The position numbers and the translations under genes were made by a program. The notes under the pieces were generated by a model. The model ran no database searches, had not been told where the DNA came from, and was given only the letters and a program-made list of their open reading frames with translations. From Nitrospirota bacterium (GTDB lineage Bacteria; Nitrospirota; Nitrospiria; JACQCE01): a DNA stretch of 53,616 nucleotides. Of this stretch, positions 23,663 through 46,235 are shown one piece after another. The first letter of the stretch is position 1; each line of letters opens with the position of its first letter. The stretch spans positions 1 through 53,616 of the forward strand of contig JACQCE010000048.1 in assembly GCA_016201765.1 (NCBI GenBank), in the 5' to 3' direction.

Positions 23663-25474
23663 ATGACGACCCCTTCACTGAAACGGCGCAAGCTCGGCGA
23701 ACTGCTGATCGCCGACGGACAGTTGACCGAGGAACAACTCAATCAGGCCCTGGCCTATCAGCACCGGCACGGCGGGCGTCTGGGCGCCATTTTGCTGAAA
23801 ATGGGCTTCGTCACCGAAGAGGCCATGATCAAGATGCTGGGCTCCCAGATGGGCATTGCGCACATCGAGCCGTCCGATATCGTCATCGAGCAATCCGTCA
23901 TCAAGCTGGTTCCGGAGCAGATGGCCCGCCGCTATCAGGTGTTGCCGGTGGCCAGGAAGGAGCGCGTGATCACGCTGGCCATGGCCGATCCGCTCAATGT
24001 GTTTGCCATTGATGCGGTCCGCCAGGCCACCGGTCTCGATGTGCAGCCGGTGGTCAGCCGGGAGCAGGAGGTGCTGAAAGCGATCAACCGCTACTACAGC
24101 ATCACCTCCTCCATGGAGCGCGTGGTCAAAACCCTCGACGATCAGCGCACGGGCCAGGACCGGAGGAGCCAGAGCGATCGACGGTCAGAGACGAGTTTGG
24201 ACGAATCATACCAGGTGGACGAACTGGGCGACATGACCCTCATCCGGGAACTGCGCTCGGTGGTCGGCGAACTCAAAGCCGAGGATGCCCCGGTCATCAA
24301 ATTCGTCAATATGATGATCGCCCAAGCCGTCCGGGAAGGGACGAGCGACATCCACCTGGAACCGGATTCGGATGTGCTCCGGATCCGCTATCGCGTGGAC
24401 GGTCTGCTCCGTGAAGTGTTGACCTCGCCGCGCCACCTGCAGGCCGGCGTCACCTCCCGCATCAAGATCATGGCGAACATCGACATTGCGGAGAAGCGCA
24501 TTCCGCAGGACGGCGCCATCCAGATCAAGGTCGGCAAAAAGGACCTGGATATTCGCGTGTCGACCCTGCCGACGGTCTTCGGCGAAAAGGTCGTCATGCG
24601 GTTGCTGGACAAGAGCAACGTCCTGCTCGGCCTGGAGGAGTCCGGGATGGCGGAACGGCACGTCGTCCCCTTTCGCAAGCTGATCCGGCGGCCGTATGGA
24701 TTGATCCTGGTCACGGGCCCGACCGGCAGCGGGAAGTCGACCACGCTCTACGGATCGCTGCAGGAGATCAACTCCATCGACAAGAACATCGTCACCGTCG
24801 AGGACCCGGTGGAATATCAGCTCAAGATCATCAACCAGGTGCAGGTCAATTCGAAAGCGGGTGTGACGTTCGCCAGCGGCCTCCGGTCGATCCTCCGGCA
24901 GGATCCCGACGTCATCATGATCGGCGAAATCCGCGACAAGGAAACGGCGACCATCGCCATCCAGGCCGCGCTGACCGGCCATCTGGTTTTTTCGACGCTG
25001 CATACGAACGATGCGCCCACCGCCGCCACCCGGCTGATTGACATGGGCGTGGAACCCTTTTTGATCGCCTCGACGCTGTCCGGCGTGGTCGCCCAGCGGC
25101 TGGTCCGTCGGGTCTGTCAGCGGTGCAAGTCGCCCTACGAGCCGCAGGCCGATCTGCTGAAAAACTTGAATCTCAACGGGGCCCAGCCGTCGAGTCTCAA
25201 CGGCGCGCAAGCGGGGGAGACGTTTATGCACGGCAAGGGGTGTCAGGAGTGCCGTCAGACCGGCTACGCGGGCCGGATGGGGATTTACGAGCTGTTGATC
25301 CTGGATGACGCCCTCCGCACCCAGATCATTGCCCGGGCCACGGCCAGGGAGATTCAGATCCAGGCGAAGAAGTCGGGTTTTATGACCCTTCGAGAGGATG
25401 GGCTGCTCAAAGCGGCTCATGGCCGGACCACGCTTGAAGAAGTCCTGCGGGTCACGCAGGAAATAGAGGAATAG
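23663..25474 (+). CDS. PilB/MshE-family assembly ATPase with tandem MshEN motifs, copy 2
   Basis: KLGELLIADGQLTEEQLNQALAYQ-5aa-RLGAILLKMGFVTEEAMIKMLGSQ; GPTGSGKST, LRQDPDVIMIGEIRD, TGHLVFSTLHTN, Zn Cys motifs. Confidence 0.95.
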   Translation: MTTPSLKRRKLGELLIADGQLTEEQLNQALAYQHRHGGRLGAILLKMGFVTEEAMIKMLGSQMGIAHIEPSDIVIEQSVIKLVPEQMARRYQVLPVARKERVITLAMADPLNVFAIDAVRQATGLDVQPVVSREQEVLKAINRYYSITSSMERVVKTLDDQRTGQDRRSQSDRRSETSLDESYQVDELGDMTLIRELRSVVGELKAEDAPVIKFVNMMIAQAVREGTSDIHLEPDSDVLRIRYRVDGLLREVLTSPRHLQAGVTSRIKIMANIDIAEKRIPQDGAIQIKVGKKDLDIRVSTLPTVFGEKVVMRLLDKSNVLLGLEESGMAERHVVPFRKLIRRPYGLILVTGPTGSGKSTTLYGSLQEINSIDKNIVTVEDPVEYQLKIINQVQVNSKAGVTFASGLRSILRQDPDVIMIGEIRDKETATIAIQAALTGHLVFSTLHTNDAPTAATRLIDMGVEPFLIASTLSGVVAQRLVRRVCQRCKSPYEPQADLLKNLNLNGAQPSSLNGAQAGETFMHGKGCQECRQTGYAGRMGIYELLILDDALRTQIIARATAREIQIQAKKSGFMTLREDGLLKAAHGRTTLEEVLRVTQEIEE

Positions 25475-25565
25475 GGTCAAGAGGCATGGGGCAAGGGGCA
25501 AGAGAAAAGAGAACAGGGAAGTGTCCCGGACCCTTGACCCCCTGACCCCTGACCCTGGACCCTCT
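25473..25565. repeat. Heptamer-type repeats in inverted arrangement
   Basis: AGGGTCAA/GGGGCAA/GGGGCAA followed by complementary-type CCTTGAC/CCCTGAC/CCCTGAC/CCTGGAC units. Confidence 0.7.
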
Positions 25566-25575
25566 TGGTGTGCAT

Positions 25576-26805
25576 ATGCCGGTGTTTGAATACAAAGCCC
25601 GGGATCGCGGGGGACGGTTGCTGAGCGGATCGTTTGAAAGCGGCAGCCGCGACGCGGTGGCCGAGCAATTGGAGGCCCAGGGCTGCTGGCCTGTCTCGAT
25701 CGCGGAGAAGAAGGATGACCTGCTGACGTCCGATCTCTCCGGGTTTCTCGCGCGGTTCCAGACAGTGACCGAGAATGACCGCCTCTTTTTCACGCGTCAA
25801 CTCCACAGCCTGCTCTCCGCCGGCGTGCCTTTTTCCGGCAGCTTCAGCGCGCTGATCACCCAGACGGAGAATCCCAAGTTGAAAGTGCTGCTGGGCCAGG
25901 TCCAGCGCGATGTGGAAGGGGGCCTGTCGTTTTCCCAGGCGCTGGAAAGGCACTCGGATGTGTTTGACGGGCTCTACATCAGCATGATCGGCGCGGGCGA
26001 GCAGGCCGGCGTCCTGGACACCATCCTCGAGCGGCTGGTGCAGATCGGCGAGCACGAGCAGGAGACGCGGCAACGGATCAAGGCGGCCACCCGTTATCCA
26101 AAGATCGTCATCAGCGGCATGGTGCTGGCGTTTGTGATTTTGATGATCTTTGTCGTCCCGACCTTCGCCAAAATGTACGGCGGCGCCAAGGTGTCGTTGC
26201 CTCTCCCCACGCGGATCATGATCGGCACCAACAATCTGTTCATGGGCTACTGGTGGCTGATGCTGGCGGCGGCGGGGGGCGGCTGGTATACGCTGAAACG
26301 GGTGCTTGCCACGCCGATCGGCCGGGAGCGATGGGACGGCTGGAAATTGCGGATTCCGCTCTTCGGGCCCATCTTTCTCAAATCGGCGCTCTCCCGTTTT
26401 GCGCTGATCTTCGCCATTCTGAGCCGCAGCGGTCTGCCGGTGCTGCAGATCCTCGACGTCGTCTCGAAAACCGTCGGCAACACCGTCCTGTCCAAACTCA
26501 TCGTGGGCATTTCGGACGCGGTGAAGGAAGGGGCCAACCTGTCCAACCCCATGAAAGAGGCCAAATTGTTCCCTCCGGTGGTGCTGCAGATGGTGGCGGT
26601 GGGCGAGGAAACCGGCCAGTTGGACAAGATGTTGATGAACGTCTCCCACTATTATGACCGGGAGGTCGATTACTCGCTCAAAACGTTGTCCTCCGCGCTG
26701 GAGCCGATTCTGCTGCTGGTGATCGGCACCATGGTCCTGCTGCTGGCGCTGGCGATCTTCATGCCGTGGTGGGACATGATGAAGGTCTTCAAGGGTGGAA
26801 GCTGA
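25576..26805 (+). CDS. GspF/PilC/MshG-family platform protein, copy 2
   Basis: MPVFEYKARD, FTRQLHSLLSAGVP, GEQAGVL, ATRYP, GEETGQLD, LEP..AIFMPWW (MshG-like ending). Confidence 0.93.
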   Translation: MPVFEYKARDRGGRLLSGSFESGSRDAVAEQLEAQGCWPVSIAEKKDDLLTSDLSGFLARFQTVTENDRLFFTRQLHSLLSAGVPFSGSFSALITQTENPKLKVLLGQVQRDVEGGLSFSQALERHSDVFDGLYISMIGAGEQAGVLDTILERLVQIGEHEQETRQRIKAATRYPKIVISGMVLAFVILMIFVVPTFAKMYGGAKVSLPLPTRIMIGTNNLFMGYWWLMLAAAGGGWYTLKRVLATPIGRERWDGWKLRIPLFGPIFLKSALSRFALIFAILSRSGLPVLQILDVVSKTVGNTVLSKLIVGISDAVKEGANLSNPMKEAKLFPPVVLQMVAVGEETGQLDKMLMNVSHYYDREVDYSLKTLSSALEPILLLVIGTMVLLLALAIFMPWWDMMKVFKGGS

Positions 26806-26923
26806 ACCGTGAAGCGCGGCGCGCCGCATGTGCCCCACGGATGCCCGGGGGAGGAGCGGGCGTCGCCCCCAACTATAAAAGGGGGTGGTGGGTCAGTTTT
26901 CTGCTGCCCGCATGTGTGGCGTC

Positions 26924-27010
26924 AAAAATAGGGACACGTCCCAATTGTTCCAGAGTGAGTCACACACAGGCGGCAGGAACTCACCACAATTGGGACGTGT
27001 CCCTATTTTT
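26924..27010. repeat. Perfect 25-bp inverted repeat (REP/REPIN- or MITE-like)
   Basis: AAAAATAGGGACACGTCCCAATTGT (26924-48) and exact reverse complement (26986-27010); each arm holds palindrome GGGAC-AC-GTCCC. Confidence 0.9.
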
Positions 27011-27047
27011 CGGGTGAAACTGACCCAGTGCCAAAAAAGGGGGGGAT

Positions 27048-27082: not shown

Positions 27083-27178
27083 TTGGCGGCTGCGAATGCG
27101 GCCACGGCACGGCGCAACACAACCAACGATCTCGCGTCGCGGACGATCCTCGCGGGGCGGAAAGGGAGGAGCAGAATC

Positions 27179-27700
27179 ATGAAGCGGATGTCCAATTCTC
27201 AAGGGTTCACCCTGATCGAACTGATCATGGTGGTGGTGATCCTCGGTATTCTGGCTGCGGTGGCCATTCCGCGGTTCATTAATTTGCAGACGGATGCGCA
27301 GCGGGCGGCCGAAAAGGGCATGGCCGGCGGCGTGCGGGCGGGCATTTCGATCGTCCGGGCGGCGTTTCTTGTCGGCGGCACAACGGCAGGCACCGCGTCG
27401 CCGGCATCAAATCAGCTTGGTTGGCCGGCCAGACTGGATAATGCGGCGGCGACCACGTTTGCCGCCAATGGCAATCAGGGACAGGTCGGGCTGTTCTCCT
27501 ATGTGGTGGAGACGGGAACGACCTCATCCGACAACTGGGTGCAAACCACAGCTCCAGCCGGTGGGCCCTATACCTATGTCGGACCATTCGGCAATGTCGC
27601 GGGAGCCGCAGCTGCCACATGGACCTATACACCGGCGGCGGTGGTTGCTGGTGTCAACGTTGCGGCCACGTTCAATTGCACCGGGACGAACTGTCCGTAG
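27179..27700 (+). CDS. Major type IV pilin, MshA-like
   Basis: Short leader MKRMSNSQG/FTLIEL with E5, AIPRFINLQTDAQ resembling MshA, C-terminal Cys pair; own promoter and SD. Confidence 0.85.
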   Translation: MKRMSNSQGFTLIELIMVVVILGILAAVAIPRFINLQTDAQRAAEKGMAGGVRAGISIVRAAFLVGGTTAGTASPASNQLGWPARLDNAAATTFAANGNQGQVGLFSYVVETGTTSSDNWVQTTAPAGGPYTYVGPFGNVAGAAAATWTYTPAAVVAGVNVAATFNCTGTNCP

Positions 27701-27770
27701 CTTGTTGAAGGAGAAATGGCCGGAGAGTGAGATGGCCGGCTGTGTTTGACAGCAGTGGCGATTGACCGTG

Positions 27771-29588
27771 ATGCGGCAACGGGCCGGAGATTGGCTCATA
27801 TATGTGATCGTGGCTGTCCCGTTCCTTGCCGCGGCGTTTGACACGGGCGTTCAGAGCCTGCTCTTTACCACGCTGACCGCGTGGGGGACGCTGGCGCTTC
27901 TCCTGATCGTTGGTGTGCGCCCCGCAACGGGGGATCCCCCCGTTGCGGGGCGCCTGTTTGATCTGCCGTTGTTCGGTCTGCTCCTGGTCGGCGGCGTGTC
28001 CGCCGTCTGGTGGACGGTTGATCGGGGCAGTAGTGATCTGGGGCTGATCAAACTGGCCAATTTCGTCCTTCTCGCACTCCTGCTGCCCCGGTTGCTGCCC
28101 TCGGTATCCGCCTATCGGCCGTTGTTGTTCTGGGTGGCCCTGCTGGCCGGCGGGCTGGCGCTCTATGGTTTTCTTCAGTGGCCGTTGGGATTGAATCAGA
28201 TGGGAGGCCGTCTGCACTCGTTCTTTCTGATTCCCAACAGCCTGGCCGGCTTTCTGGCGGCGGCCCTGCCGGTGACGGCGGCATTGCTGCTTACGGCGAA
28301 ATCCCGCCCGGCCCATGCGTGGTGGCTGGTGCTGGCGATTCTGCAGGCGGCGGCATTGGCGGCCACCGGTTCGCGGGGCGGCTGGCTGGCTGGCGCCGCG
28401 GGGATGCTGTGCGCGCTGGCGCTCGTGGGATGGAGGCGGGTGATGGGACGAACGCTCCTGATCGGCGCGGTGGTGTTGGCCCTGTCCGTCACGGTAATTG
28501 ACCGGTTGCATCCGGAGTTGATCAGGCCGCGCGCGGCCACGTTGACCCATCTACTCAATGCCGAGCCGCACCGCTATCTCATCTGGCAGAGCGCCGTTGA
28601 GATGATCCGGGAACGACCGCTGACGGGGTGGGGCATCGGCACGTTTGGTCTGGCCTACGTGCGGTTTAAATCGCCGGCGTTTGACGGTGTGACGCAGTAC
28701 TATGCCCACAATGATTACCTTCAACTCGCCGCGGAAATGGGGCTGCCCGGGCTGGCCTGTTTCCTCTGGCTGGCCGGTGCGGCCGGCTGGATGGTCTGGC
28801 GTGTGCGGCGCGTCCGTCAAGGAAAGGCGGACGATGTGGCGGAGGCGAAGCAGGCCTCCGGTGACGCCGCAATTCTCCTGGCCGGCGTGGCGGGCGGCGG
28901 AGCCGCGATTCTGCTGCATAGCGCGGTTGACTTCGATCTCTATGTCCCGGCCATTTTGTTCGTGCTGGCGATCTATCTCGGCTATCTGCGCTCGTCCTGG
29001 CGCGAGGTGTGCGGCCGACATTCCACCGATTCGCCATCCCCATGGGCGGCTTCAGCCTCGGCGGCGGCCCTGTGGACGAAGACGCGCCCGTTGGCCGCGG
29101 TGATCGTGTCCGTGCTGCTGGCGCTGTTGGTCGGCCGGCTCTATCTGGCGGACAGGGCCGGTTTGGCCGGGCAGGAGTCAATGGCCCGGAACCGTTATGA
29201 AGAGGCGATCGGCCGTTTTGCCGTGGCGACGGTATGGAACCCGCGCCAGGCCTCCTATTACGAGAACCTGGGGCTCGCCTATGAGCATTGGGCCAATCAG
29301 AGTCGTCGCCAGGATCTGCTGCAAACGGCGGAAATGGCCTTCCGGATGGCGACCCAATTGAGCCCTGCCGATTATCGATACTACTGGAATTTGGGGCGGT
29401 TTTATAAAAATTATGCCGCATTTTCATCGAGTTTTGCGGCGTACGACCCCTGGAGCGCCTACAGACAGGCGGCTGAGCTCTATCCGACAAAAACCGCCAT
29501 TCTCAAGGAGCTGGATTCGCTCGGCCCCCCCTCCCACTCCCCCCCAATCCCGTTAATCCGGGAGAAAACCACCCTCCGTTCCGCTTGA
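27771..29588 (+). CDS. O-antigen ligase/Wzy_C-family protein with C-terminal TPR, probable pilin O-oligosaccharyltransferase
   Basis: ~12 TM helices, PNSLAG, TGSRGG, PLTGWGIGTF, AHNDYLQLAAEMGLPG, HSAVDFD; immediately after the pilin. Confidence 0.85.
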   Translation: MRQRAGDWLIYVIVAVPFLAAAFDTGVQSLLFTTLTAWGTLALLLIVGVRPATGDPPVAGRLFDLPLFGLLLVGGVSAVWWTVDRGSSDLGLIKLANFVLLALLLPRLLPSVSAYRPLLFWVALLAGGLALYGFLQWPLGLNQMGGRLHSFFLIPNSLAGFLAAALPVTAALLLTAKSRPAHAWWLVLAILQAAALAATGSRGGWLAGAAGMLCALALVGWRRVMGRTLLIGAVVLALSVTVIDRLHPELIRPRAATLTHLLNAEPHRYLIWQSAVEMIRERPLTGWGIGTFGLAYVRFKSPAFDGVTQYYAHNDYLQLAAEMGLPGLACFLWLAGAAGWMVWRVRRVRQGKADDVAEAKQASGDAAILLAGVAGGGAAILLHSAVDFDLYVPAILFVLAIYLGYLRSSWREVCGRHSTDSPSPWAASASAAALWTKTRPLAAVIVSVLLALLVGRLYLADRAGLAGQESMARNRYEEAIGRFAVATVWNPRQASYYENLGLAYEHWANQSRRQDLLQTAEMAFRMATQLSPADYRYYWNLGRFYKNYAAFSSSFAAYDPWSAYRQAAELYPTKTAILKELDSLGPPSHSPPIPLIREKTTLRSA

Positions 29589-29622
29589 CGGCCGGGGAAA
29601 ATCTGCTACCGTTAACAATAGG
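29585..29622 (+). promoter_or_regulatory. Sigma70-type promoter for riboswitch/minor pilin operon
   Basis: TTGACG-N16-TACCGT with extended TG, followed by TAACAATAGG; ends ~10 nt before the aptamer. Confidence 0.55.
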
Positions 29623-29632
29623 TTTTCACGTC

Positions 29633-29728
29633 TGCCACCGATAAGAGCGATCCCCTTGAAAAGGGGGAATTCGCAAAGCGACACGCCTACGGCCCTCACG
29701 GCACGGCGATGTGGTTGCCGAAGTGGCA
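29633..29728 (+). ncRNA. GEMM-I (cyclic-di-GMP-I family) riboswitch, A20/C92 variant (cGAMP-type)
   Basis: P1 TGCCAC/GTGGCA; GC-GA-TCCCCTT-GAAA-AGGGGGA-ATT-CGC-AAAGC P2 and junction; GCCTACGGCC..GGCACGGC receptor-like P3; 3' GGTTGCCGAA. Aligns by eye with Vc2 and Geobacter GEMM-I aptamers. Confidence 0.8.
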
Positions 29729-29826
29729 CACCAGGGAGTCCGCAAATGTTGCGGCTCCGCGACCAGTCACCCTGTGATTGGACACGGAAGACGGCCGGAG
29801 ACGGCGTCTTGCGAACGGTGTGCGGC

Positions 29827-30513
29827 ATGGAGCAGCCAGCGCCTCAAAGACACAGAGCACTCGTGCACCCATTCCTGTCCGGCCGCGCCAGTGGTGCGCG
29901 TTCCGGCCAGGCAGGCTTCACGCTGATCGAGCTGGTGATCATCATCGTCATTATCGGCATTCTGGCTATTGTCGCTATTCCTCGCTTCAATTACAGCGGT
30001 CCGCAGGTGTCGGCGACGTCCAGAAAATTGATCGGGGACCTTCGATACGCGCAGGCACGCGCCGTCGCCACGCAGGTCCCGCACGGCGTGACCTTCGCCG
30101 CCTGCGCCGGGGGCGCGGCTGGTTGCACCCAATATCGGCTCTTTTTCAACTGCGCCGGAATTCAGAATAACTCCAATTGCGCCCCGGCCGAACTGGCCGC
30201 GTTCACCGGATTCGCTGTGACGGCGGATCCCCTTGGACAATATTATCTGGAGAAAGATCCATTGAGCGGTCAGGATTTCTCCATGCAGATGATCGGCCCC
30301 CATGACGGGGTGCTGCTCGATACGACGCTGGCGGAGCAGACCATTCAATTCAACGCGACGGGCAGGCCCTGCGGGGGGTGGGGCGCCGGTTGTGTCGCGC
30401 TGGCGCTGCTCCCGTCGCCGACCAATACCATCGATGTCCACAAGGATATGGCGTGCGAGCAGATGTCGGTCACGGTGGCCACGGGGCTGGTGGATTGGCG
30501 GGACCAATGTTGA
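29827..30513 (+). CDS. Minor pilin (MshC/FimT/GspH-like)
   Basis: QAG/FTLIELVIIIVIIGILAIVAIPRF, DLRYAQARAV, IQFNATGRP; Cys-rich. Confidence 0.85.
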   Translation: MEQPAPQRHRALVHPFLSGRASGARSGQAGFTLIELVIIIVIIGILAIVAIPRFNYSGPQVSATSRKLIGDLRYAQARAVATQVPHGVTFAACAGGAAGCTQYRLFFNCAGIQNNSNCAPAELAAFTGFAVTADPLGQYYLEKDPLSGQDFSMQMIGPHDGVLLDTTLAEQTIQFNATGRPCGGWGAGCVALALLPSPTNTIDVHKDMACEQMSVTVATGLVDWRDQC

Positions 30514-31175
30514 TGAGGGCGGTCGCCACGGCGTCCGCGAGCCGCAGGGGGCGGACGGGACCTTTCCTCCGCAATCAACGGGGCGTGACGCTGGTCGAGC
30601 TGGTGATTCTGCTGGTGATCGCCGCCATCGCGCTTCCCACGCTGATGATCTATTTCATCCAAACGATGAATCACACCGCCGAGGCGCAGATGGGCACGGT
30701 GGGCTTGGGGCTGGCGCAGGAATTGATGGAGGAGGTCAGGGCGAAGCGCTGGGACGAGAATGTCCCGATTCCCAACGGCGTTCCAACGGGCGCGAATGCG
30801 CTCGGCCCCGAGGCAGGTGAAAGCCGCTGCGACCCGGCGGCGCCGATGTGCACTTCCTATGACGATATCGACGATTACAATTTCCCTGATGCGGCGCCCA
30901 ACAGCGGGATTACTGATCCGCACGGAAATCCTTTGCCGGCCTACGCGGGGTACCTGTACCGGGTGAAGGTCTGCTACGTCAATGGGCCGCAATCCGTCGG
31001 CGACGGGGGCGACAATGCGAATGGGGGCGCCTGTGTGGCGGGCGCCACCGACTACAAAAAAATCACGGTCACGGTGATGTGGGGCGAGTGCGCGGACAGC
31101 GCGTCTCCCCGATGCGGGCGGATGCAACTGGACACGGTCATGGCCAACTACCATCTCGATCAATCGTCATCATGA
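30513..31175 (+). CDS. Minor pilin (MshD/PilV-like)
   Basis: QRG/VTLVELV, AQELMEEVRAKRWDEN, LGPEAGESR, YDDIDDYN, YKKITVTV; TGATG coupling. Confidence 0.85.
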   Translation: MRAVATASASRRGRTGPFLRNQRGVTLVELVILLVIAAIALPTLMIYFIQTMNHTAEAQMGTVGLGLAQELMEEVRAKRWDENVPIPNGVPTGANALGPEAGESRCDPAAPMCTSYDDIDDYNFPDAAPNSGITDPHGNPLPAYAGYLYRVKVCYVNGPQSVGDGGDNANGGACVAGATDYKKITVTVMWGECADSASPRCGRMQLDTVMANYHLDQSSS

Positions 31176-32131
31176 ACAGGCGAATAATCATCAACCGCCG
31201 CGGCATCACGCTGCTGGAGATCATCCTGGTGATGGTGATCATGGGCATCCTGGCCGGGATTATTGTGGTGCCGGTGATCACGGGGGCGAAAGCCTGGAGC
31301 GACATGACCCGCCAGAATGAGGTTTCGCAACAGGCCCGGATCGGACTGGACCGGTTTGTGCGCGAGGCGCGCGCGATTCGGCGGGTCAACGGGCGGCCGT
31401 CGCTCATGGTGAACTGGACCGAAGGCGTCACGCCGGTGGCGATCGGGCCGAACCGGATCCGGTTTATCACATCGAGCGGCGAGGACCTGGAGTACAGCTG
31501 GGCGGGCGCGGGGCAGCCGTTGATCCGCACCGACTGGACGACCGGCGTCGCCGTGACCGACCCCGCCGCCATAAACGTGCAAAATTTCTCCCTGGCCTAT
31601 TATGAAGATTCCAACGCGTCGATCGTCCAGATGCGCCAGGAGGCCGAGGACGCGCCGGTGGCGTGCACCCCCGATGTCTGCGCCGACACCGTGCAGGGCG
31701 CCGATGTCGTGCTGGCGGTCAACGGCGCGACCCTGGCCTACCAGTTCACCGGCACGCGGATTGCCTGGATCGGCCCGAAGGATGTCGGCCTCGGGACGGC
31801 GGAGGTCTGGATTTCCGATACCGTTCCGGACGTCATCGCCAATCCCGCCACCACGGACCCGGCGACCGCGATCGTCGTTCAAAACTCGAGTGCGGCCACT
31901 CCCGCCACGGCGCTCTTTGTCAGCGGCCCGCTGCCCTACGGTGCGCACTGGATTGCCATCGCCTGTCGAAGCCCGCTGAATGCCGATTGTTCGGTAACGC
32001 CGGTCAAGGCGGATGCGTTGGATTTGCTGGTCAACCGCGTGGTGGTCGACCTGACGGTCGGGGAGGGGGCGTGCAACGCCAACCTGTGCACCACCCTGCG
32101 CGACCAGATCTCATTCCGGTCCGTGCAATGA
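31172..32131 (+). CDS. Minor pilin (MshO/PilW-like) with inserted jelly-roll-like segment
   Basis: RRG/ITLLEIILVMVIMGIL, ARIGLDRFVREAR; ATGA overlap. Confidence 0.82.
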   Translation: MNRRIIINRRGITLLEIILVMVIMGILAGIIVVPVITGAKAWSDMTRQNEVSQQARIGLDRFVREARAIRRVNGRPSLMVNWTEGVTPVAIGPNRIRFITSSGEDLEYSWAGAGQPLIRTDWTTGVAVTDPAAINVQNFSLAYYEDSNASIVQMRQEAEDAPVACTPDVCADTVQGADVVLAVNGATLAYQFTGTRIAWIGPKDVGLGTAEVWISDTVPDVIANPATTDPATAIVVQNSSAATPATALFVSGPLPYGAHWIAIACRSPLNADCSVTPVKADALDLLVNRVVVDLTVGEGACNANLCTTLRDQISFRSVQ

Positions 32132-36347: not shown

Positions 36348-36380
36348 TTGACATCAGCCATTTTCTGGCGTATCAATAAT
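36348..36380 (+). promoter_or_regulatory. Sigma70-type promoter for pilMNO-secretin operon
   Basis: Perfect TTGACA then AT-rich TATCAATAAT at ~17-21 nt spacing. Confidence 0.55.
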
Positions 36381-38130: not shown

Positions 38131-38200
38131 AGGACTTGACGGATTGTGGTGATCGTCCGATGACGCGTGGCGCAACCGACGGGGAGCGGAAAAGGGTCTG

Positions 38201-38779
38201 ATGGGAAAACTGTTCGCCCTGCTGCAAAAACTGTCGCCGCGCGAACAATTCATCGCGTGGGCGGTCATCGCCGCGCTCGTCGTCTCCGGCGGCGTGATGC
38301 TGCATGATGCGCAGCAGAAGAAGTTGCTTGCGCTGAAGGGCCAGCTGGATGCCGTGAAAAATGAGATCGGCGGCCTGAAGAGCGAGGTGCTGCTCAGGCA
38401 GAAAGAGGTGGATCAGGCTGCGGCACAGCAGGTTGAGGCGAAAACGCGGGCCACGCTGGTCGCGCAAACGCAGCAGCAGTTGTCGCAGGGGGGGCGGGTG
38501 TCGGAGCTGGTTTCCGAGTTGATGCGTACGGCCAAGGAGGGGGGGGTCGACGTGCTATCGATCAAACCCGGCGAGCAGCGGGATCAAGGCAGCTATGTGG
38601 AATTGCCGGTGACCATGGAACTGCGGGCCCGGTTCCGCAGTCTGGGGGAATATCTGCAGCAGGTGCAACACCTCCAGCAGGTGGTGCTGGTGGGCCGGGT
38701 TCGTGTGGAGCCGTCAACGGTGGAAGGCGCGGTGTTGACCGTGGAGGTGGGCACGGTGAGTTTCCTGGGGAAGGTGTGA
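38201..38779 (+). CDS. pilO: PilO/MshJ-family protein
   Basis: LSPRE before TM, coiled coil, YVELPVTMEL, LGEYLQQV. Confidence 0.8.
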   Translation: MGKLFALLQKLSPREQFIAWAVIAALVVSGGVMLHDAQQKKLLALKGQLDAVKNEIGGLKSEVLLRQKEVDQAAAQQVEAKTRATLVAQTQQQLSQGGRVSELVSELMRTAKEGGVDVLSIKPGEQRDQGSYVELPVTMELRARFRSLGEYLQQVQHLQQVVLVGRVRVEPSTVEGAVLTVEVGTVSFLGKV

Positions 38780-39198
38780 TGGAGACGCGGTCGGTCATCG
38801 TGATCGGTGTGATCGTGTGGGCGGTGTGGGTGGCGCCGGCCTCTTCTGCTGATGCAACCGGCGCTTCCGAAACGGCAAGCCGTGCGCGACTGTCGGCGGG
38901 GCTGTCCGAGATCAATCTTCAGGCGTTGGAACAGTTGGAGGCGCCCCGATGGGGGAGGGATCCGTTTGCGCAACCCACCAAGGAGGAGGTCATGGCGGGG
39001 ACGCTGTCGCTGACGGCCATCCTCTATCACCAGTCATCCGCGGTGGCCGTGTTGAACGGTCAAGTGGTGCGGGTCGGCGATGAGGTGGATGGGCGGCAGG
39101 TGGTGGCGATTGACCGCGATCATGTGATGGTGCGCGAAGGCAAAGTCCTCCGGCGGCTGGATGTCCCGCGGTTCACCGTCCAAAAGAGGAAACCGTAG
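38776..39198 (+). CDS. MshK/PilP-like protein
   Basis: Signal/TM, RDPF, LTAIL..AVLNGQVVRVGDEVDG..VVAI. Confidence 0.7.
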   Translation: MMETRSVIVIGVIVWAVWVAPASSADATGASETASRARLSAGLSEINLQALEQLEAPRWGRDPFAQPTKEEVMAGTLSLTAILYHQSSAVAVLNGQVVRVGDEVDGRQVVAIDRDHVMVREGKVLRRLDVPRFTVQKRKP

Positions 39199-40560
39199 AT
39201 GCGCAAGGCGCGAGACTGGCGGGGCCGTGCGATGATCTGCGTGCTGGCGGCGATGGCGGTGTGGGGAGGGCCGTCCGGAATGGGGGCGGCGGTCGCCGCG
39301 CCGCCGGCGCTGCGTTTTTCAATGGAATTCAGGGACGCCGATGTGAAGGATGTGCTCAGAGCCCTTGGACAGGAAAACAAGCTGAATGTGGTATTCGGCG
39401 ATGACGTCCAGGGCAAGGTGACGTTGAGCTTTCGCGATGTCACGCTGCAGGAGGCGCTGGAGGCGATTCTCCAGATCCAGAACCTGAGCAGCATGCAGGA
39501 GGGCAACATCCTCCGGATCGTCCGTTCGCCGTTTGCGGCGGGTGAAGACCAGCTGGTCACCGCCATCGTTCCGGTGCAATTCGCGGACGCGGATGAACTG
39601 TCCCAGTCGGTCAGGCAGTTGTTGAGCTCCAGGGGAAAATTGACCATCGACAAGCGGACCAATGCGTTGCTGATCAGGGATGTGCAGGAAAACATCCGGC
39701 GCATTCGGGGCGTGGTGGGAAAATTGGATGAACGGACGCCCCAGGTCCTGATTGAGGCAAAAATTGTCGAGGCGGACACAAGTTTCTCCCGTCAGATCGG
39801 GATCCAATGGGGGGCCAATGGCATCTCGCGCAACGGAGCGGGGACGTTTGGCCTCGGGGGCACCGCGGCCACGGGAGGGGTGGGCGCGGCGGGCAGCAAT
39901 TTTCTGGTGAATTTGCCGGCCAGCGTCGGTCCGGGTTCCGGCGGCGCGATCGGATTCTCATTTGCCAACATTTCCGACACCTTCGCGCTTGATCTCCAGT
40001 TGACGGCGCTTGAAAATACGGGTCGCGGCAAGATTTTATCGAGCCCAAAAATTCTGACCCAAAACAATAAGGAAGCCAAGATTTCCACCGGCCTGACCAT
40101 TCCGGTGCTGACCTCGACGGTGGTCGCCTCGGGCGTGGCCGGGCCGGGCGGCGCGGAGGGGAGCCAGGCGACGACGGGCGTGCAAAATATCGACGTCAAT
40201 CTGGCCCTGACGGTCACCCCGCATGTGACGCCCGGTGATCAGATTAATCTGAAAATTCATGCGGAGAAAAAGGACGCCGATTTCGCGCAGCAGGTGCAGG
40301 GCATCCCGACATTGACGACGCGCGAGGCGTCGACGGAAATGATCGCCCGCGACGGCGAAACGGTGGTGATCGGCGGAATTTACAAAAAAACGGAAAGCAA
40401 GCAACGCACCGGCCTGCCGTTCCTGTCCAGCATTCCCGTGGTGGGCTGGCTGTTTAAAAACGAAAAAACATCTGATGATTTGTCCGAGCTGCTGATCTTT
40501 GTGACCCCGCATCTCTATCGTAATCGTGATCAGTCGGCCTCGTCCCGTTCCGCCCCTTGA
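39199..40560 (+). CDS. pilQ: Secretin (PilQ-like, short, no AMIN domains)
   Basis: SMEFRDADVKDVL, DKRTNALLI, QVLIEAKIVE, ILSSPKILT, DGETVVIGGI, PFLSSIPVVGWLFK, ELLIFVTP. Confidence 0.9.
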   Translation: MRKARDWRGRAMICVLAAMAVWGGPSGMGAAVAAPPALRFSMEFRDADVKDVLRALGQENKLNVVFGDDVQGKVTLSFRDVTLQEALEAILQIQNLSSMQEGNILRIVRSPFAAGEDQLVTAIVPVQFADADELSQSVRQLLSSRGKLTIDKRTNALLIRDVQENIRRIRGVVGKLDERTPQVLIEAKIVEADTSFSRQIGIQWGANGISRNGAGTFGLGGTAATGGVGAAGSNFLVNLPASVGPGSGGAIGFSFANISDTFALDLQLTALENTGRGKILSSPKILTQNNKEAKISTGLTIPVLTSTVVASGVAGPGGAEGSQATTGVQNIDVNLALTVTPHVTPGDQINLKIHAEKKDADFAQQVQGIPTLTTREASTEMIARDGETVVIGGIYKKTESKQRTGLPFLSSIPVVGWLFKNEKTSDDLSELLIFVTPHLYRNRDQSASSRSAP

Positions 40561-40654: not shown

Positions 40655-41008
40655 ATGTCGACGGCTGACGGATCGAATGAGACGATTGTCGTGTTGGTGA
40701 CGGCGCCGCCGGGCGAATTGGCGCGGGCGATCGCCCGCCGCCTGGTTGACGCCCGGTTGGCCGCGTGCGTGAACATCGTGACATCGGTCGAATCGATCTA
40801 TCGCTGGGAGGGCCAGCGTTGCGAGGAGGCCGAGTGGCTGCTGGTGATCAAAACGCGGCGACCGTTGTTCGATCGGGTGGCTTCCGAAGTCAAGGCCCTC
40901 CACAATTACGCCATTCCCGAGATCATTGCGCTGCCCATTGTGTCGGGATCCAAAGACTATCTCCGGTGGGTGGTTGAGTCAACCCCGCTGACCAGCCCAA
41001 TTCTGTAA
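40655..41008 (+). CDS. cutA: Divalent-cation tolerance protein CutA
   Basis: ARLAACVNI, SIYRWEG, E.LLVIKT, HNYAIPEIIALPI. Confidence 0.95.
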   Translation: MSTADGSNETIVVLVTAPPGELARAIARRLVDARLAACVNIVTSVESIYRWEGQRCEEAEWLLVIKTRRPLFDRVASEVKALHNYAIPEIIALPIVSGSKDYLRWVVESTPLTSPIL

Positions 41009-41120
41009 CCAGTTACCCATTAATGGACAAAGTTGGCCTGTGTGTTTCAAAGAGGAACGTTTCTGTAATAAAAAGGCTATTTTTATCAAAATGTTAGAAA
41101 CAAGTCCCGATTTGAAACGC

Positions 41121-41135
41121 TGGCATATTGCTTGC
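41121..41135 (+). promoter_or_regulatory. Sigma54 (-24/-12) promoter
   Basis: TGGCATA-TTGC-TTGC with GG-N10-GC spacing, AT-rich upstream tract, ~60 nt before ATG 41194. Confidence 0.6.
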
Positions 41136-41193
41136 GTCTTTACCAGACCGAAGGGATAAGAATGACCGGTTACATTTGCGGGAGGGACTGAGA

Positions 41194-42114
41194 ATGGCCG
41201 ATCCCCAAGATGCCTATACCATCGTCATTTTTCCCAAGCCGACTGCCAAAGGCTATCAATTTCGGATTGCCAAGCAGAGAGCCAAACAGTTGGGGATTGC
41301 GGCGGCCGCTCTGGTGGTGGTGTTCAGCCTCGCGGCATTGCATTATGTTGTGATGCTGGGTCATGCGTGGGAACTGCGGACGTTGCGGTTGAAAAGCACG
41401 ACCCAGGAGCAGGAGCTGGCGCGCTATCAGGAGCTGGCGAATGATTTGAAGGGACAACTGGAGCGGCTCCGGGAATTTGACGTCAAACTCCGCGTCATGA
41501 CCAATTTGAATCCGCCGCCCGATGCCGACGGAAAGGCCGGCATCGGCGGCACCGAGGCGACCCCTGACGGTCCGCCTCTCGACGGAAAGGGCGGAACGGA
41601 GGAGGCGCCCCCCGTGACCGAGCTGGAAGCGTCGTTGGTGAGTTTGCAGTCCGACGCCGCCCGGCAGGAAGCAAGTTTCTCCGAACTGATAAGCTCGCTG
41701 CGCGGGCGGATGACGCAGTGGGCGTCGACGCCGTCGATCTGGCCCGTGCACGGCTGGTACTCATCCGGTTTCGGACGACGCCTCTCGCCGTTTACCGGGA
41801 CGATCATGATGCACAAGGGGATCGATCTGGCCGCCTATGCGGGCACGCCGATCGTGGCGCCTGCGGACGGACGGGTGGAGGCCGTGGACCACGACAGCGG
41901 GCTCGGCAGGGTGGTGGTCATCGATCATGGTTACGGTGTGAAAACACTCTATGCGCATCTCTTGCGGACCTATGTCAGTACCGGCATGCGGATCAAACGG
42001 GGCGAGACCATTGCGGCGGTCGGCAACAGCGGACTGAGCACCGGTCCTCATCTGCACTACGAAATCCACGTCAACGGTCAGGCGGTGGATCCGCTTCAGT
42101 ACATCATCAACTGA
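41194..42114 (+). CDS. M23-family peptidoglycan endopeptidase with TM and coiled coil
   Basis: PSIWPV, HKGIDL (HxxxD), YAHL, STGPHLHYE (HxH). Confidence 0.93.
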   Translation: MADPQDAYTIVIFPKPTAKGYQFRIAKQRAKQLGIAAAALVVVFSLAALHYVVMLGHAWELRTLRLKSTTQEQELARYQELANDLKGQLERLREFDVKLRVMTNLNPPPDADGKAGIGGTEATPDGPPLDGKGGTEEAPPVTELEASLVSLQSDAARQEASFSELISSLRGRMTQWASTPSIWPVHGWYSSGFGRRLSPFTGTIMMHKGIDLAAYAGTPIVAPADGRVEAVDHDSGLGRVVVIDHGYGVKTLYAHLLRTYVSTGMRIKRGETIAAVGNSGLSTGPHLHYEIHVNGQAVDPLQYIIN

Positions 42115-42185
42115 CGCTTCCCCGGTTCTTGCTGATCCTCTAGACGATCCGATCGGCCCGCCGTCTGGTGGCGGGGGACGCCTTG

Positions 42186-42194
42186 TGTTATAAT
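42186..42194 (+). promoter_or_regulatory. Extended -10 promoter upstream of secA
   Basis: TGTTATAAT about 110 nt before the ATG. Confidence 0.5.
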
Positions 42195-42304
42195 TCACAC
42201 ATGCGGCGGCTGGTTGTTGTCGTCAGTAGATGTCTCTTCACACCCCGGCGGTCGTCCCTCCGATTACTGTCTCCCGGTTTTGAAACCCGAGGGTTTCTTT
42301 TTCA

Positions 42305-45046
42305 ATGATCGGCACCCTGATCAAAAAAGTCGTCGGCACGAAAAACGACCGGGAACTGAAGCGGCTCTGGCCGATCGTGGCGAAGGTCAACGCGTTCGAG
42401 CCCGCCGTGGCCGCGCTCGATGACGAGACGCTGACGGTGAGGACTGACGACTTCCGCCGGCGCTTGGCCGGCGGGGAGTCGGTCGACGCCGTGTTGCCCG
42501 AAGCCTTTGCCGTGGTGCGCGAGACGGCCAAGCGGCGGTTGGGGATGCGCCATTTCGATGTCCAGCTGCTGGGCGGCGTGGTGCTGCACGAAGGCAAAAT
42601 CTCCGAGATGAAGACCGGCGAAGGGAAGACGCTGGTCGCCACGCTTCCCCTCTATCTGAATGCGCTCACCGGCCGGGGCTGCCATCTGATCACCGTCAAC
42701 GATTACCTGGCCAAGCGCGACGCCCAGTGGATGGGGCCCGTCTATCACGCGCTGGGGCTGTCCGTCGGTGTAATCCAGCACGACGCCTCGTTCCTGTTTG
42801 ATCCCTCCTATGAGGCCTCGGACCGCCGGATGCAGTCGTTGCGGCCGGTGACCCGGCGGGAGGCCTACGCGGCCGACCTCACCTACGGCACCAACAACGA
42901 GTTCGGATTCGATTATCTGCGGGACAACATGGTGGTGGAACAGGCGCAATGCGTGCAGCGCGATCTGCATTATGCCATTGTGGACGAAGTGGACAGCATC
43001 CTGATTGACGAGGCGCGCACGCCGCTGATCATTTCCGGCCCCGCCGAGGAATCCACGGACCTCTACTATCGCGTGGACAAGATCATCCCGTACCTGAAGG
43101 CCGTGACCGATTACACCATCGAGGAGAAGACCAAAACCGTGGCGCTGACCGAGGAGGGCAACGCGAAGGTGGAGCGCCTGCTCGGGGTCGACAATTTGTA
43201 TGACATGGCCAACATGAGTCTGGTGCATCACGTGGGGCAGGCGTTGAGGGCGCACGCGCTCTACCACCGGGACGTCGAATATGTCGTCAAGGACGGACAG
43301 GTCATCATTGTGGATGAGTTCACCGGCCGGCTGATGCCGGGGCGCCGCTGGAGCGACGGCCTGCACCAGGCGGTCGAAGCCAAGGAAGGCGTCAAGATCG
43401 CCAGCGAGAACCAGACGCTGGCCACGATCACCTTCCAGAATTATTTCAGACTCTATGACAAATTGGCCGGCATGACCGGCACGGCCGACACCGAAGCGGC
43501 GGAGTTCAGCAAGATTTACTCGCTGGATGTCGTGGTGGCGCCGACGCACCGCGTGATGAGCCGGGTGGACTATCCCGACGTGGTCTACCGGACCGAGCGG
43601 GAAAAGTTCGAAGCGATCGTTGAGGAGATCATTGAGCTGCATGCCAAGGGACAACCGGCTCTCGTCGGGACGATCTCCATCGAAAAGTCCGAGCGATTGA
43701 GCGCGATGTTGAAACGGCGCGGCGTCGAACACTCCGTCCTGAACGCCAAGTATCATGAGAAAGAGGCCGAGATCATCGCGCAGGCCGGCCGCAAGAACGC
43801 CGTCACGATTGCGACCAACATGGCGGGCCGCGGCACCGATATCCTGCTGGGAGGCAACCCGGATTTCCTGGTCAAGCGCGAGATGCAGAAACAGGAGGAG
43901 TGGGCGCCGGCCGACCTGCAGCGGCTCACCGAACGGATCAAGGCGGAGACGGAGCGGGAGAAACAGGACGTGGTCGCGGCGGGCGGTCTGCACATCCTGG
44001 GCACGGAACGGCACGAAAGCCGGCGGATCGACAATCAATTGCGCGGTCGTTCCGGCCGGCAGGGCGATCCCGGTTCATCGAGGTTTTATCTCTCCCTGGA
44101 AGACGATCTGATGCGGATTTTCGGCAGTGAGCGTCTTTCCGGGTTGATGCAGCGGCTGGGGATGGAGGAAGGGGTCCCGATCGAACACCGGTGGGTCACC
44201 CGGTCGATCGAAGGCGCCCAGAAAAAAGTGGAAGCCCATAATTTCGAAATCCGGAAACAGTTGCTTGAATATGACGACGTCATGAACAAGCAGCGCGAGG
44301 TCGTCTATGAGCGCCGGAAGGAAATTCTCCGGGGCGAATCGGTCGTGGACACGATTCAGGAGATGATTGAGGAGCGGCTGGACGGGTTGTTGCCGCTCTA
44401 CTGCTCCGAAGAGCAGCACGCGGAGGAGTGGGACCTGAAGGGGCTGGCCGAGGCGCTGCATCAGCAGTTTGCGCTGGAGGCCGATGAGCCGTGGTTGCGG
44501 TCGCTTCAAGGCCCCGACGCCCTGCGGTCGGAGCTGCTGCATCGCATTCGGGAAGGGTATCATCGGCGGGAGGCGGAGTTCGGGGAGTTGATGATCCGGC
44601 AGGTCGAACGGATGGTGATGCTTCGCGTCATGGACGCCCTCTGGAAGGATCATCTGCTGTCGATGGATTATTTGAAGGAGGGGATCGGCTTGCGGGGATA
44701 CGGCCAACGGGATCCGCTGGTTGAATACAAGCGCGAGGGATTTGATCTGTTCGCCGACATGATGGGGCGCGTCCAAAGCGAGGTCATCGCCCATCTGATG
44801 CGGGTGCAGCCGGTGCCGCAGGCGGTTCCGTCCGCCTCGCCGGGCCCGGCGGCCGGCTCACCGGTTTCCCCCTTGGCGTCCACCCCAGGACGCTCGCCCC
44901 GGCTGGTCTTTCATCGGGGCGACGCGGGACAGGAGGCCGCATCGGCGGCGCCCGCGCATCGGGACGCGGACAAGGTCGGACGCAATGACCCCTGTCCCTG
45001 CGGCAGCGGGAAGAAATACAAAAAATGTCATGGGAGCAGCGCCTAG
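42305..45046 (+). CDS. secA: Protein translocase subunit SecA
   Basis: [55 protein letters not shown] motif [19 protein letters not shown]. Confidence 0.99.
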
Positions 45047-45062
45047 GGCGGACCGGCGGATC

Positions 45063-46235
45063 ATGGGGGCGAGACACACGACCAAAAAATCCGGAGGGCA
45101 CACGCCGAATCATCCGAAGGCGGCGCCCGCGTCGGACAGGCTCCAGGCGCTGATCACGGAGAATCGCGAGCTCAAAACGGGGCTCCGTTACCGGACCAAG
45201 GAGCTCAGTTTCTTCCTGAGCCTGGCCAAGGCGCTGACCTCGACCCTGGAACTCAAGAAGGTGCTCAAGGTCATCATGGCCCGCGCGCAGCAGTTGATCA
45301 AGGCCGAGGCCTGGGCGCTGCTGCTGGTGGATGAGCCGGCCAACGAACTCTATTTCGACCTGATCCACTCCAAGCACGAAAAGGCCCTCAAATCGCAGCG
45401 CATCAAACCGGGCCAGGGCCCGGCGGGATGGGTCGTCCGGTACAACAAGCCGCTCCTGGTGCCCGATCTTGCCAAGGACGGCCGGTTTTCCAGCGGCCTC
45501 GACCTGCAACTTGGTTCGCCGTCACGATCGTTGATCGGCGTGCCGATCGTGAACAAGAAACGGACGATCGGCGTCCTGGAGGCCGTCAATAAAACGGGTG
45601 ACGGGCCGTTTGACGAACAGGATCTGGCGCTCCTGGTGAAGCTGGTCGATCAGGCCGAGATCGCCATCGAGCGCGCCTATCTGTATCAGAAGATGGCCGA
45701 CCTCGCGGTCACCGATGATCTGACGAAGCTCTTCAATTTCCGGTATCTCGACCAGACGCTCGACATCGAACTCCGCCGGGGACAGCGCTACGGCGCGAAT
45801 GTGTCGTTGATCTTCCTGGACATGGATTACTTCAAGCAGGTCAACGACCGGTACGGCCATCTGATGGGCAGCCGCGTGCTGATCGAGGTGGCGCAGATCC
45901 TGATCCAGAATCTGCGCGACGTCGACATCATCGCCCGGTACGGCGGGGATGAGTTTGTGGTGGTCCTGCCCGAGACGCCCCTCGATGTCACCTACCGGAT
46001 CGCCCAACGGCTTCGCGTGGCATTGCGCGAGCACATGTTCCTCGAGGCGGAGGGCCATCCGGTCAAACTCACGGCCAGCTACGGGATCGCGAGTTACCCG
46101 ACGCACGCGCGCAATAAGAAGGATCTGATCCGTCTGGCCGATCAGGCGATGTACCGGGCGAAGAACAGCGGCCGTGACCAGATCTGCCTGGCTGAACATC
46201 CGGCGACCAAGCCGTCCCCCTCCGCGGCGGGCTAG
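45063..46235 (+). CDS. GAF-GGDEF dinucleotide cyclase with Hypr (cGAMP synthase) signature
   Basis: GAF domain; DDLTKLFNFRY, DMDYFKQVNDRYGHLMGS (Ser replacing the conserved Asp), RDVD I-site, RYGGDEF, ADQAMYRAK. Confidence 0.9.
   Translation: MGARHTTKKSGGHTPNHPKAAPASDRLQALITENRELKTGLRYRTKELSFFLSLAKALTSTLELKKVLKVIMARAQQLIKAEAWALLLVDEPANELYFDLIHSKHEKALKSQRIKPGQGPAGWVVRYNKPLLVPDLAKDGRFSSGLDLQLGSPSRSLIGVPIVNKKRTIGVLEAVNKTGDGPFDEQDLALLVKLVDQAEIAIERAYLYQKMADLAVTDDLTKLFNFRYLDQTLDIELRRGQRYGANVSLIFLDMDYFKQVNDRYGHLMGSRVLIEVAQILIQNLRDVDIIARYGGDEFVVVLPETPLDVTYRIAQRLRVALREHMFLEAEGHPVKLTASYGIASYPTHARNKKDLIRLADQAMYRAKNSGRDQICLAEHPATKPSPSAAG

Follow-up and report, generated by a model that had tools for sequence, protein, structure and literature searches.

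What connects a pilus island, a predicted synthase of cGAMP (3',3'-cyclic GMP-AMP) and a riboswitch of the cGAMP type that lie together on one contig of an uncultured groundwater Nitrospirota bacterium? The question is raised by positions 23663-46235 of a 53,616-nt window (the whole stretch of DNA that was analysed), which is contig C42 of genome G000 (1.96 Mb, 85.6% complete). A preliminary description of this DNA had seen here a candidate local system, in which cGAMP sets the tip pilins and adhesin of an 'MSHA-like' pilus and c-di-GMP (cyclic dimeric GMP) gates its motor. The answer we favour, with slightly more belief than doubt, is that a type IVa pilus island, a Hypr-type enzyme, a GEMM-I aptamer whose position 20 is an A (A20) and a motor with an MshEN domain do lie together, and that the enzyme and the aptamers form a genome-wide network. 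The link to the pilus is specific to this strain, and there is no dedicated pilus module. Judged by sequence, each part has the features that define its family, except that the aptamer lies below the Rfam threshold.

The observations behind this answer are sequence signatures, conservation, synteny and co-occurrence. Genes were called with Pfam and NCBIfam models at the cut-offs of those models, and the calls agree with the gene content given earlier for 23663-46235. For comparison we used 41 genomes of the class, including G000, and 201 genomes sampled from the phylum as a whole. The compared genomes share ancestry: G001 is of the same genus as G000, family f1 includes G001, G003 and G004, and family f2 includes G007 and G016. 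The DNA runs that contain the region are groundwater metagenomes from a single study, and no RNA run turned up that contains it. The cyclase orthologues nearest to that of the window (75-86% identity) are in metagenome-assembled genomes titled Nitrospiria or Nitrospirota bacterium, which bears out the earlier guess that the locus is probably from a different phylum than the known cGAMP models.

A Hypr-type cyclase tied to secA

The GAF-GGDEF gene is located at 44985..46235 on the + strand (Pfam GAF and GGDEF), with a likely start at ATG 45063, past the stop codon of secA. When its product is compared with all solved structures, the closest is 6d9m, the Hypr GGDEF domain of Geobacter metallireducens GacA (166 bits), which leads the next, PleD (119.5 bits), by ~47 bits; the GGDEF domain is ~49% identical to 6d9m, as counted on the alignment midline. 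The cyclase has GHLMGS where GacA has GHLVGS, 3ign GHLAGD and PleD GHDIGD, and its Ser296 falls on GacA Ser348, replacing the base-reading Asp. It has GGDEF and not GGEEF (RYGGDEFVV, with the motif at residues 320-324), an RDVD I-site and a non-Arg residue at the cross-dimer site, Phe252 in LFNFRYLD. Every sequence mark of a Hypr enzyme is present, in agreement with the Ser-GGDEF protein with a GAF sensor that had been announced. Ser is stated to function only alongside GGDEF and not GGEEF (the 'Goldilocks' rule); at the cross-dimer site, 94% of diguanylate cyclases are given as having Arg and GacA as having Tyr304, and Hypr enzymes with the Arg are said to yield more c-di-GMP (PMC6456294). 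Of the 13 GGDEF domains encoded by G000, this cyclase alone has the Ser, its 12 paralogues all having Asp together with a cross-dimer Arg or His.

The signature is conserved well beyond this genome. Full-length orthologues (46-88% identity) were found in 32 of the 41 class genomes, counting G000. We fetched 30 of these loci, of which 29 cover the site and one is cut off before it; the orthologues of G013 and G038 were not read. All 29 covered loci have GS and GGDEF, with Phe, Tyr or Leu at the cross-dimer site. In the phylum sample an orthologue was found in 43 genomes, representing 31 of 82 genera, and in none of the 28 f3, 12 f12, 44 f17, 28 f21 and 13 f22 genomes. Twenty orthologues sampled from other classes, belonging to 12 other families (13 to 15, 18 to 20, 24 to 26, 29, 31 to 34), have GS, GGDE[FY] and RxxD without exception, and Phe, Met, Leu, Thr or Ser at the cross-dimer site. 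Taken together, the Ser is present in 49/49 Nitrospirota orthologues checked, and the cross-dimer residue is Phe, Tyr, Leu, Met, Thr or Ser, never Arg. As a control for the assignment of the columns we used GGDEF matches from other phyla, which have Asp in 51/51 and Arg in 48/51 cases.

The gene also has a constant neighbour. In 28 of the 30 loci, spread over eight families, secA is directly upstream on the same strand, and the remaining two loci begin at a contig end. At the secA/cyclase junction (loci L007-L036) the two genes often abut or overlap.

With GacA (PDB 6d9m/5VS9) of the GEMM-Ib pathway the cyclase shares the Ser site, GGDEF, the I-site and, at the cross-dimer site, an aromatic residue in place of Arg; it differs in having GAF and Phe where GacA has a receiver-domain sensor and Tyr, in being tied to secA, and in its phylum. 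Myxococcus xanthus GacB (MXAN_2643), described as a cAMP-activated GAF-GGDEF Hypr enzyme (10.1101/600031), has the same domain architecture, Hypr signature and I-site; the likeness is one of architecture and signature. The GAF domain of the cyclase has 5w10 as its nearest solved relative (E 2e-23), followed by GAF domains of phosphodiesterases that bind cyclic mononucleotides. We take 5w10 to be the cAMP-binding GAF domain of Lcd1.

The RNA element before the minor pilins

The second part of the question concerns an 87-nt RNA element at 29636..29722 of the + strand. It lies in sense orientation within a 240-nt leader, between a conserved promoter and the start of the first of several pilin genes. 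We built a clade covariance model from 54 aptamers of the relatives and G000, leaving out the element itself; the consensus of the alignment is GEMM-I, with compensatory changes in 13/17 pairs. With this model the element scores 39.2 bits (rough E 1.5e-10); no other match in the 53.6 kb exceeds 10.8 bits. A gap of this size identifies the element as a real relative of GEMM-I, beyond chance. It has the GEMM-I architecture of the model, with 13 of 17 pairs standard, and when folded alone it adopts the two-hairpin shape of the family at -33.4 kcal/mol (z -2.67), better than 197/200 shuffles. Model position 11, which we equate with Vc2 G20 by reference to the P1a GC pairs, is an A, unpaired and immediately 5' of the G-C/C-G pairs; Vc2 G20 is said to correspond to A14 of Gs1761 (PMC6140456, PMC5888326). 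Intact, too, are the junction CGCAAAGC, a GAAA tetraloop and the 3' UUGCCGAA, the junction and the 3' sequence being the same as in the strong aptamers of G000, five of which score above the Rfam cut-off (40-64 bits). The element has an identical sequence in a third run (X3) of the source study. Set beside Vc2 and RF01051, it shares the two hairpins, the GNRA loop, the CGCAAAG junction and the 3' GCC; it differs in its A20, in a P1 internal loop that is base-paired with a 2-nt insertion, and in its score. Its closest look-alikes form a family-specific group (GCAAUCCC...GGGUCGCAGAGCGAG) found in G001, G002 and G006, where large secreted proteins are encoded behind them; this suggests that the element arose by duplication.

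The operon behind the leader encodes proteins expected at the pilus tip. Its promoter-like site, TTGACG-N16-TACCGT (29585..29612, + strand), is at the end of the preceding Wzy gene and was recognised by eye, the same site being present in G004; a consensus scan of 29300-30100 returned no promoter and no + strand terminator. All of the following genes are on the + strand and, in the case of the pilins, have the N_methyl motif. Minor pilin 1 (29827..30513, alternative start GTG 29863) is GspH/FimT-like by weak GspH-type matches and 41% identical to its G004 counterpart; minor pilin 2 (30507..31175) is PilV-like at 28.8 bits, below the cut-off, and 56% identical to that of G004; minor pilin 3 (31172..32131) has a prepilin domain. 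The fourth gene (32128..36283) encodes a PilX-like N-terminus followed by a beta-propeller/LamG/DNRLRE/BNR adhesin (Laminin_G_3, PSII_BNR; DNRLRE 53.4 bits). In the window it is split into open reading frames (ORFs) 31663-33537 and 33185-36283, and the contigs of the runs break at 33183/33184. A contig of run X2 has ~135 extra bases there, a net difference of ~137 (2 mod 3) that restores the frame. These ~137 nt are probably missing from the window assembly, and the adhesin gene is probably one ORF of ~1430 codons. We considered that the apparent +1 frameshift might be real or programmed and dropped this, since the extra run sequence at 33183/4 restores the frame. A further promoter-like site, TTGACA-N17-TATCAA (36348..36376, + strand), precedes pilM and is also found in G001, which is without the minor-pilin block. 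As pilM has this conserved site of its own, any effect of a riboswitch should end at the adhesin, in line with the restriction to tip pilins and adhesin that had been proposed for the element.

How the element would act can be modelled. In the minimum-free-energy fold computed with ViennaRNA, 29705-29732, made up of the P2 3' strand and the nucleotides next to it, pairs with 29817-29843 and covers the AUG at 29827, a possible expression platform spanning 29705..29843 on the + strand. This alternative helix over the AUG would constitute a translational ON switch. Enforcing the aptamer fold on the leader costs only 0.7 kcal/mol (-119.1 versus -119.8 kcal/mol unconstrained), and even then the AUG is paired, in a different helix, which keeps the ON switch hypothetical.

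This last result is one of several that weigh against the answer we favour; those concerning the element are given here, and those concerning the chemistry and the network below. At the Rfam gathering score there is no match in the window, and at relaxed settings RF01051 gives 29636-29722 a score of 29.1 bits (E 0.045) that, with the cut-off at 35, falls short of Rfam-threshold membership of GEMM-I. The P1 internal loop is GAU/AAUU and not the usual AAA/GA, giving a near-continuous helix that may disturb the pocket. Four of the 17 pairs of the clade model, at the base of P2, are non-standard, and the free fold gives a shifted P2. The claim of a cGAMP-type riboswitch can accordingly be kept in part: the element is a GEMM-I relative with A20 by the clade model, but it is below the Rfam cut-off and atypical in P1 and P2. 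Neither is it shared with relatives. In G004 promoter and pilin operon are the same, but the leader is short (that of the window is ~190 nt longer) and contains no aptamer; in G001 the Wzy gene is followed by pilM directly, with neither minor pilins nor adhesin. The syntenic loci of G001, G004, G007 and G016 have no aptamer by Rfam (E up to 1) or by the clade model with filters off, the best match there being 16.6 bits, inside secA. A blastn search with 29589-30000 against 20 relatives matched the conserved prepilin N-terminus only and left the aptamer unmatched. The compared relatives thus contain no orthologue of the element.

The alternative that survives best is that 29636-29722 is a decaying or inert GEMM-I copy and that the operon is driven by its conserved promoter alone, as the aptamer-free G004 operon with its identical promoter would be. 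The low Rfam score, the altered P1 loop, the four irregular P2 pairs and the missing orthologue are all what an inert copy should look like, and there is no terminator-like site on the + strand downstream. Against this, every ligand-contacting position of the model is preserved, from A20 and the G-C/C-G pairs through the AAA junction to the 3' GCC, P1 is fully paired, the family fold outdoes nearly all shuffles, and the extra length of the leader relative to G004 accommodates a predicted helix over the AUG in competition with P2. On these grounds we regard the inert copy as unlikely, and continue with a network of aptamers in which this one may be functional.

A20 aptamers and phosphodiesterases beyond the window

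If the cyclase and the A20 aptamers form a network, they should be found together in other genomes. RF01051 finds 134 aptamers in 33 of the 41 class genomes, with A at position 20 in 67, G in 66 and C in one. At least one A20 aptamer is present in 23 of the 32 genomes with the Ser enzyme, versus one of the nine in which the enzyme was not found; the co-occurrence that had been expected is observed. The single exception, G031, is an 82% complete genome, and its congener G036 has the Ser enzyme; the other eight genomes have no A20 aptamer. Two f3 genomes, G008 and G040, have an aptamer and no detected Ser enzyme, and in each the aptamer is a single G20. Family f1 has 32 aptamers, of which 23 are A20 and precede a receiver-only protein, large secreted proteins or a Rec-GAF-HD-GYP gene; its G20 aptamers stand before a DedA/VTT membrane protein. 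The aptamer of the window is the only one (1/134) that is followed within 1.5 kb by a prepilin motif, so the aptamer-pilin pairing, put forward as a system, is confined to this genome.

Several of these aptamers deserve mention in their own right. At C86:45853-47591 of G000 (L003) an A20 aptamer (45.6 bits) precedes a Rec-GAF-HD-GYP gene with canonical RIYR, a pair that is conserved in G002, G003, G004, G005 and G006 and may connect the two dinucleotides in a loop of feedback or cross-talk. G009 has several GEMM-I aptamers, in tandem or clustered, within a few hundred bases on C48 (464-1487), C46 (22996-23524) and C17 (5579-10048); C48 mixes G20 and A20, C46 has only A20 and C17 only G20. A strong aptamer of G039 (C37:64744-64834, L040; 69.7 bits) has C20, and its near-identical relative in G034 (L038) has G20. 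The aptamers of loci L167 (G004), L185 (G009), L199 (G038) and L210 (G033) precede small secreted proteins that start with 'AADTATINV...GTCTI', the aptamer being A20 in G009 and G20 in the other three genomes. We presume these proteins to resemble fimbrial subunits of the spore-coat-U/Csu type.

A search for cGAMP phosphodiesterases of the HD-GYP type had been suggested. G000 has seven HD-GYP domains, six with Rxx[RK] and one with RxxN (RVYN), so that the genome has one candidate cGAMP phosphodiesterase. It is a 478-aa HD_5 protein encoded on the - strand at C62:265-1701 (L273). An Rxx(Q/N) motif after GYP, as opposed to Rxx(K/R), and the RxxN variant in particular, has been linked to cGAMP-selective hydrolysis (10.1101/600031). 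The C62 protein shares RxxN at the selectivity motif with the cGAMP-selective PmxA/Bd2325; it differs from them in that its HHExxDGxGYP stretch is degenerate (HHLNYDLSGYP), and the gene lies elsewhere in the genome, next to one for a HEAT-repeat protein.

In Geobacter, GEMM-Ib elements are reported upstream of pilus assembly genes (PMC6456294). The likeness to that genus lies in A20 GEMM-I aptamers in the 5' untranslated regions of surface or pilus genes and in the use, predicted here, of c-di-GMP and cGAMP in one cell; the difference is that here the aptamers precede genes for secreted proteins, a receiver protein, an HD-GYP protein and, in this strain, tip pilins, and that no cytochromes were seen. 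GEMM-Ib before pilus genes, a GAF-type Hypr enzyme and cross-inhibition by c-di-GMP are already published, and a new kind of system is not established by our analysis. Our literature search found no description of Hypr enzymes, cGAMP or GEMM-Ib in Nitrospirota, and supplements of papers outside that search could list Nitrospirae Hypr enzymes.

The contrary points from the chemistry and the network are the following. Nine genomes with the Ser enzyme have no A20 aptamer, and since the genomes are related and two families hold most of the negatives, the co-occurrence gives consistent support and not statistical proof. Hypr enzymes also produce c-di-GMP, and A20 aptamers are reported as capable of being bispecific (PMC6140456). 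The 85.6%-complete genome gave no match to a class III nucleotide cyclase (PF00211), which would supply cAMP as for GacB, other cyclase classes not having been searched; a GacB-like cAMP input is therefore unsupported.

In a second alternative c-di-GMP acts alone: it is the main product of the Ser-GGDEF enzyme in the cell, the A20 aptamers bind both dinucleotides or sense c-di-GMP with lower affinity, and there is no separate cGAMP channel. Such promiscuity has precedents, Cabther_A1065 and Ddes1475 being Hypr enzymes that make mostly c-di-GMP (PMC6456294), but both carry the cross-dimer Arg that the enzyme of the window and the 49 orthologues checked do not have. Some natural A20 aptamers are on record as binding both ligands (PMC6140456), the genome has 12 canonical GGDEF domains, and the HD-GYP protein behind the C86 aptamer has the canonical RxxR; however, the A20 aptamers track the Ser enzyme, an HD-GYP protein with RxxN is present, and the strict retention of Ser with GGDEF throughout the phylum argues for selection on an altered specificity. 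We consider it improbable that c-di-GMP acts alone, somewhat more so than that the element is inert, and return to the cGAMP network.

It remains to ask why the enzyme is found near the pilus genes at all. The order cutA-M23-secA is kept in G001, G003, G004, G007 and G016; the three f1 genomes keep the longer order pilMNOPQ-cutA-M23-secA-cyclase, and the two f2 genomes keep pilM..secA with the cyclase farther along the same contigs. Because the cyclase is constantly beside secA, its closeness to the pilus island is an inherited gene order anchored on secA, and it tells little about an exclusive tie to the variable cassette behind the aptamer. The strong form of that view, a cyclase kept adjacent because it is the dedicated regulator of this pilus, could appeal to the shared order in f1 and f2 and to the altered cGAMP levels of Geobacter pilus mutants (PMC8835794), but it is very improbable given that secA is the constant neighbour, that the aptamer-controlled block is a variable cassette absent from G001, and that the other f1 A20 aptamers precede unrelated genes elsewhere in the genome.

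The pilus island, and what the parts may do together

The + strand carries every gene from 17.6 kb to 46.2 kb, and the island starts at 23663..25474 with a PilB/GspE-type assembly ATPase (Pfam T2SSE 471 bits) that has an N-terminal MshEN domain (79.8 bits). Among the NCBIfam models it is best matched by PilB (628 bits) and GspE (623 bits), both slightly below their cut-offs. The c-di-GMP motif model NF053729 is passed with 62.4 bits against a cut-off of 38, at residues 10-62, and reading the translation gives tandem motifs K10-Q33 and R39-Q62 separated by the five-residue spacer HRHGG; the motif is 24 residues long (PMC5013675). The departures from consensus are Lys for Arg at the first position, Gln for a hydrophobic residue and Met for Leu, and by sequence this is an MshEN c-di-GMP receptor domain. 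It shares with the domain of Vibrio cholerae MshE the tandem 24-residue motifs, the five-residue spacer and the place at the N-terminus of a pilus ATPase; the differences, besides the three residues just given, are that the machine is of type IVa with a PilQ-type secretin. Weak binding of cGAMP by V. cholerae MshEN has been reported (PMC5013675).

The ATPase gene is followed by those for a PilC/GspF platform protein (25570..26805; Pfam T2SSF 197 bits, NCBIfam GspF and PilC), a candidate major pilin with the prepilin N-terminal methylation motif (27179..27700; N_methyl, IV_pilin_GFxxxE 32 bits against a cut-off of 16.3) and a Wzy_C (O-antigen-ligase-like) membrane protein with TPR (27762..29588; Pfam Wzy_C 85.5 bits, TPR_11). 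The position of the last, between the major and the minor pilins, suggests pilin glycosylation, and the protein is probably a pilin glycosylase. Beyond the adhesin come pilM, pilN, pilO, a pilP-like gene and the pilQ secretin gene (36428..40560; Pfam PilM_2, PilN, PilO, Secretin). The secretin passes the NCBIfam PilQ subfamily model (345.9 bits, cut-off 284) and fails that for MshL (135.8 bits, cut-off 250), which makes this a type IVa (PilMNOPQ) machine. We tried the MSHA type and rejected it on the type of the secretin and the presence of PilM, PilN and PilO, a gene set other than that of MSHA; of the 'MSHA-like' label, only the ATPase N-terminus, judged by its sequence, deserves to keep it.

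Three housekeeping genes, cutA, an M23 peptidase gene and secA (40655..45046, Pfam), separate the island from the cyclase, the same number as first described. In family f2 a cold-shock-like gene is inserted between cutA and the M23 gene, an insert that the window does not have; at L087 14976-15457 and L088 3740-4219 this gene is overlapped by matches to the cspA thermoregulator that stay below the cut-off (53 and 48 bits against 78). Directly upstream of the island, at 17613-23532, there is another PilC / MshEN-ATPase / PilM-N-O-like set, which ends in a protein with a long proline run. Its ATPase (18873-20687) passes NF053729 overall (44.1 bits) and has the second half-motif only. The plural 'MshEN motors' of the preliminary description is thus right for the ATPase at 23663-25474, with its full motif; the second motor is outside 23663-46235 and has half a motif.

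From these parts we infer products, ligands, the sign of regulation and an order of events. The secA-linked Hypr cyclase most likely makes 3',3'-cGAMP, plus some c-di-GMP; its GAF domain would activate it on a small ligand, possibly a cyclic mononucleotide, and c-di-GMP bound at the I-site is likely to restrain it. The genome-wide network would control secreted and surface proteins, the receiver protein and an HD-GYP phosphodiesterase. A copy of the aptamer would have come to precede the tip-pilin operon in one lineage, where, if functional, it would make translation of the tip pilins and adhesin respond to cGAMP, alone or together with c-di-GMP. The MshEN domain of the PilB ATPase would make extension of the pilus depend on c-di-GMP. 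By analogy, the whole would amount to the Hypr/GEMM-Ib pathway of Geobacter with MshEN control of a pilus motor added. The 'two-messenger logic' proposed earlier is plausible at this pilus and in this strain, with one atypical, lineage-specific aptamer and predicted chemistry as its footing.

A wider proposal, which we put forward tentatively and believe less than we doubt, is that Nitrospirota outside the nitrite-oxidising Nitrospira family have cGAMP as an ancient, phylum-wide second messenger, with a secA-coupled GAF-Hypr cyclase and the A20 half of the GEMM-I aptamers controlling the secreted and surface proteome, and that in this strain a recent riboswitch duplicate sets the pilus tip and c-di-GMP gates extension.

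Hypr-cGAMP signalling has so far been worked out in three models of deltaproteobacterial type, Geobacter, Myxococcus and Bdellovibrio. To these our analysis suggests adding the phylum Nitrospirota, a fourth group that is far removed in phylogeny and of importance in the environment, and in which the signature of the synthase is strictly conserved, about half of the GEMM-I aptamers are A20 and the synthase is fixed beside secA. The phylum offers a natural set of cross-dimer variants (Phe, Tyr, Leu, Met, Thr and Ser) and dozens of A20/G20 aptamer pairs for tests of product and ligand selectivity, as well as a tangible instance of a pilus-tip operon newly preceded by a riboswitch copy. If cGAMP is indeed used throughout the phylum and this copy governs the operon, the pilus of this strain would have its tip set by cGAMP and its extension gated by c-di-GMP through MshEN.

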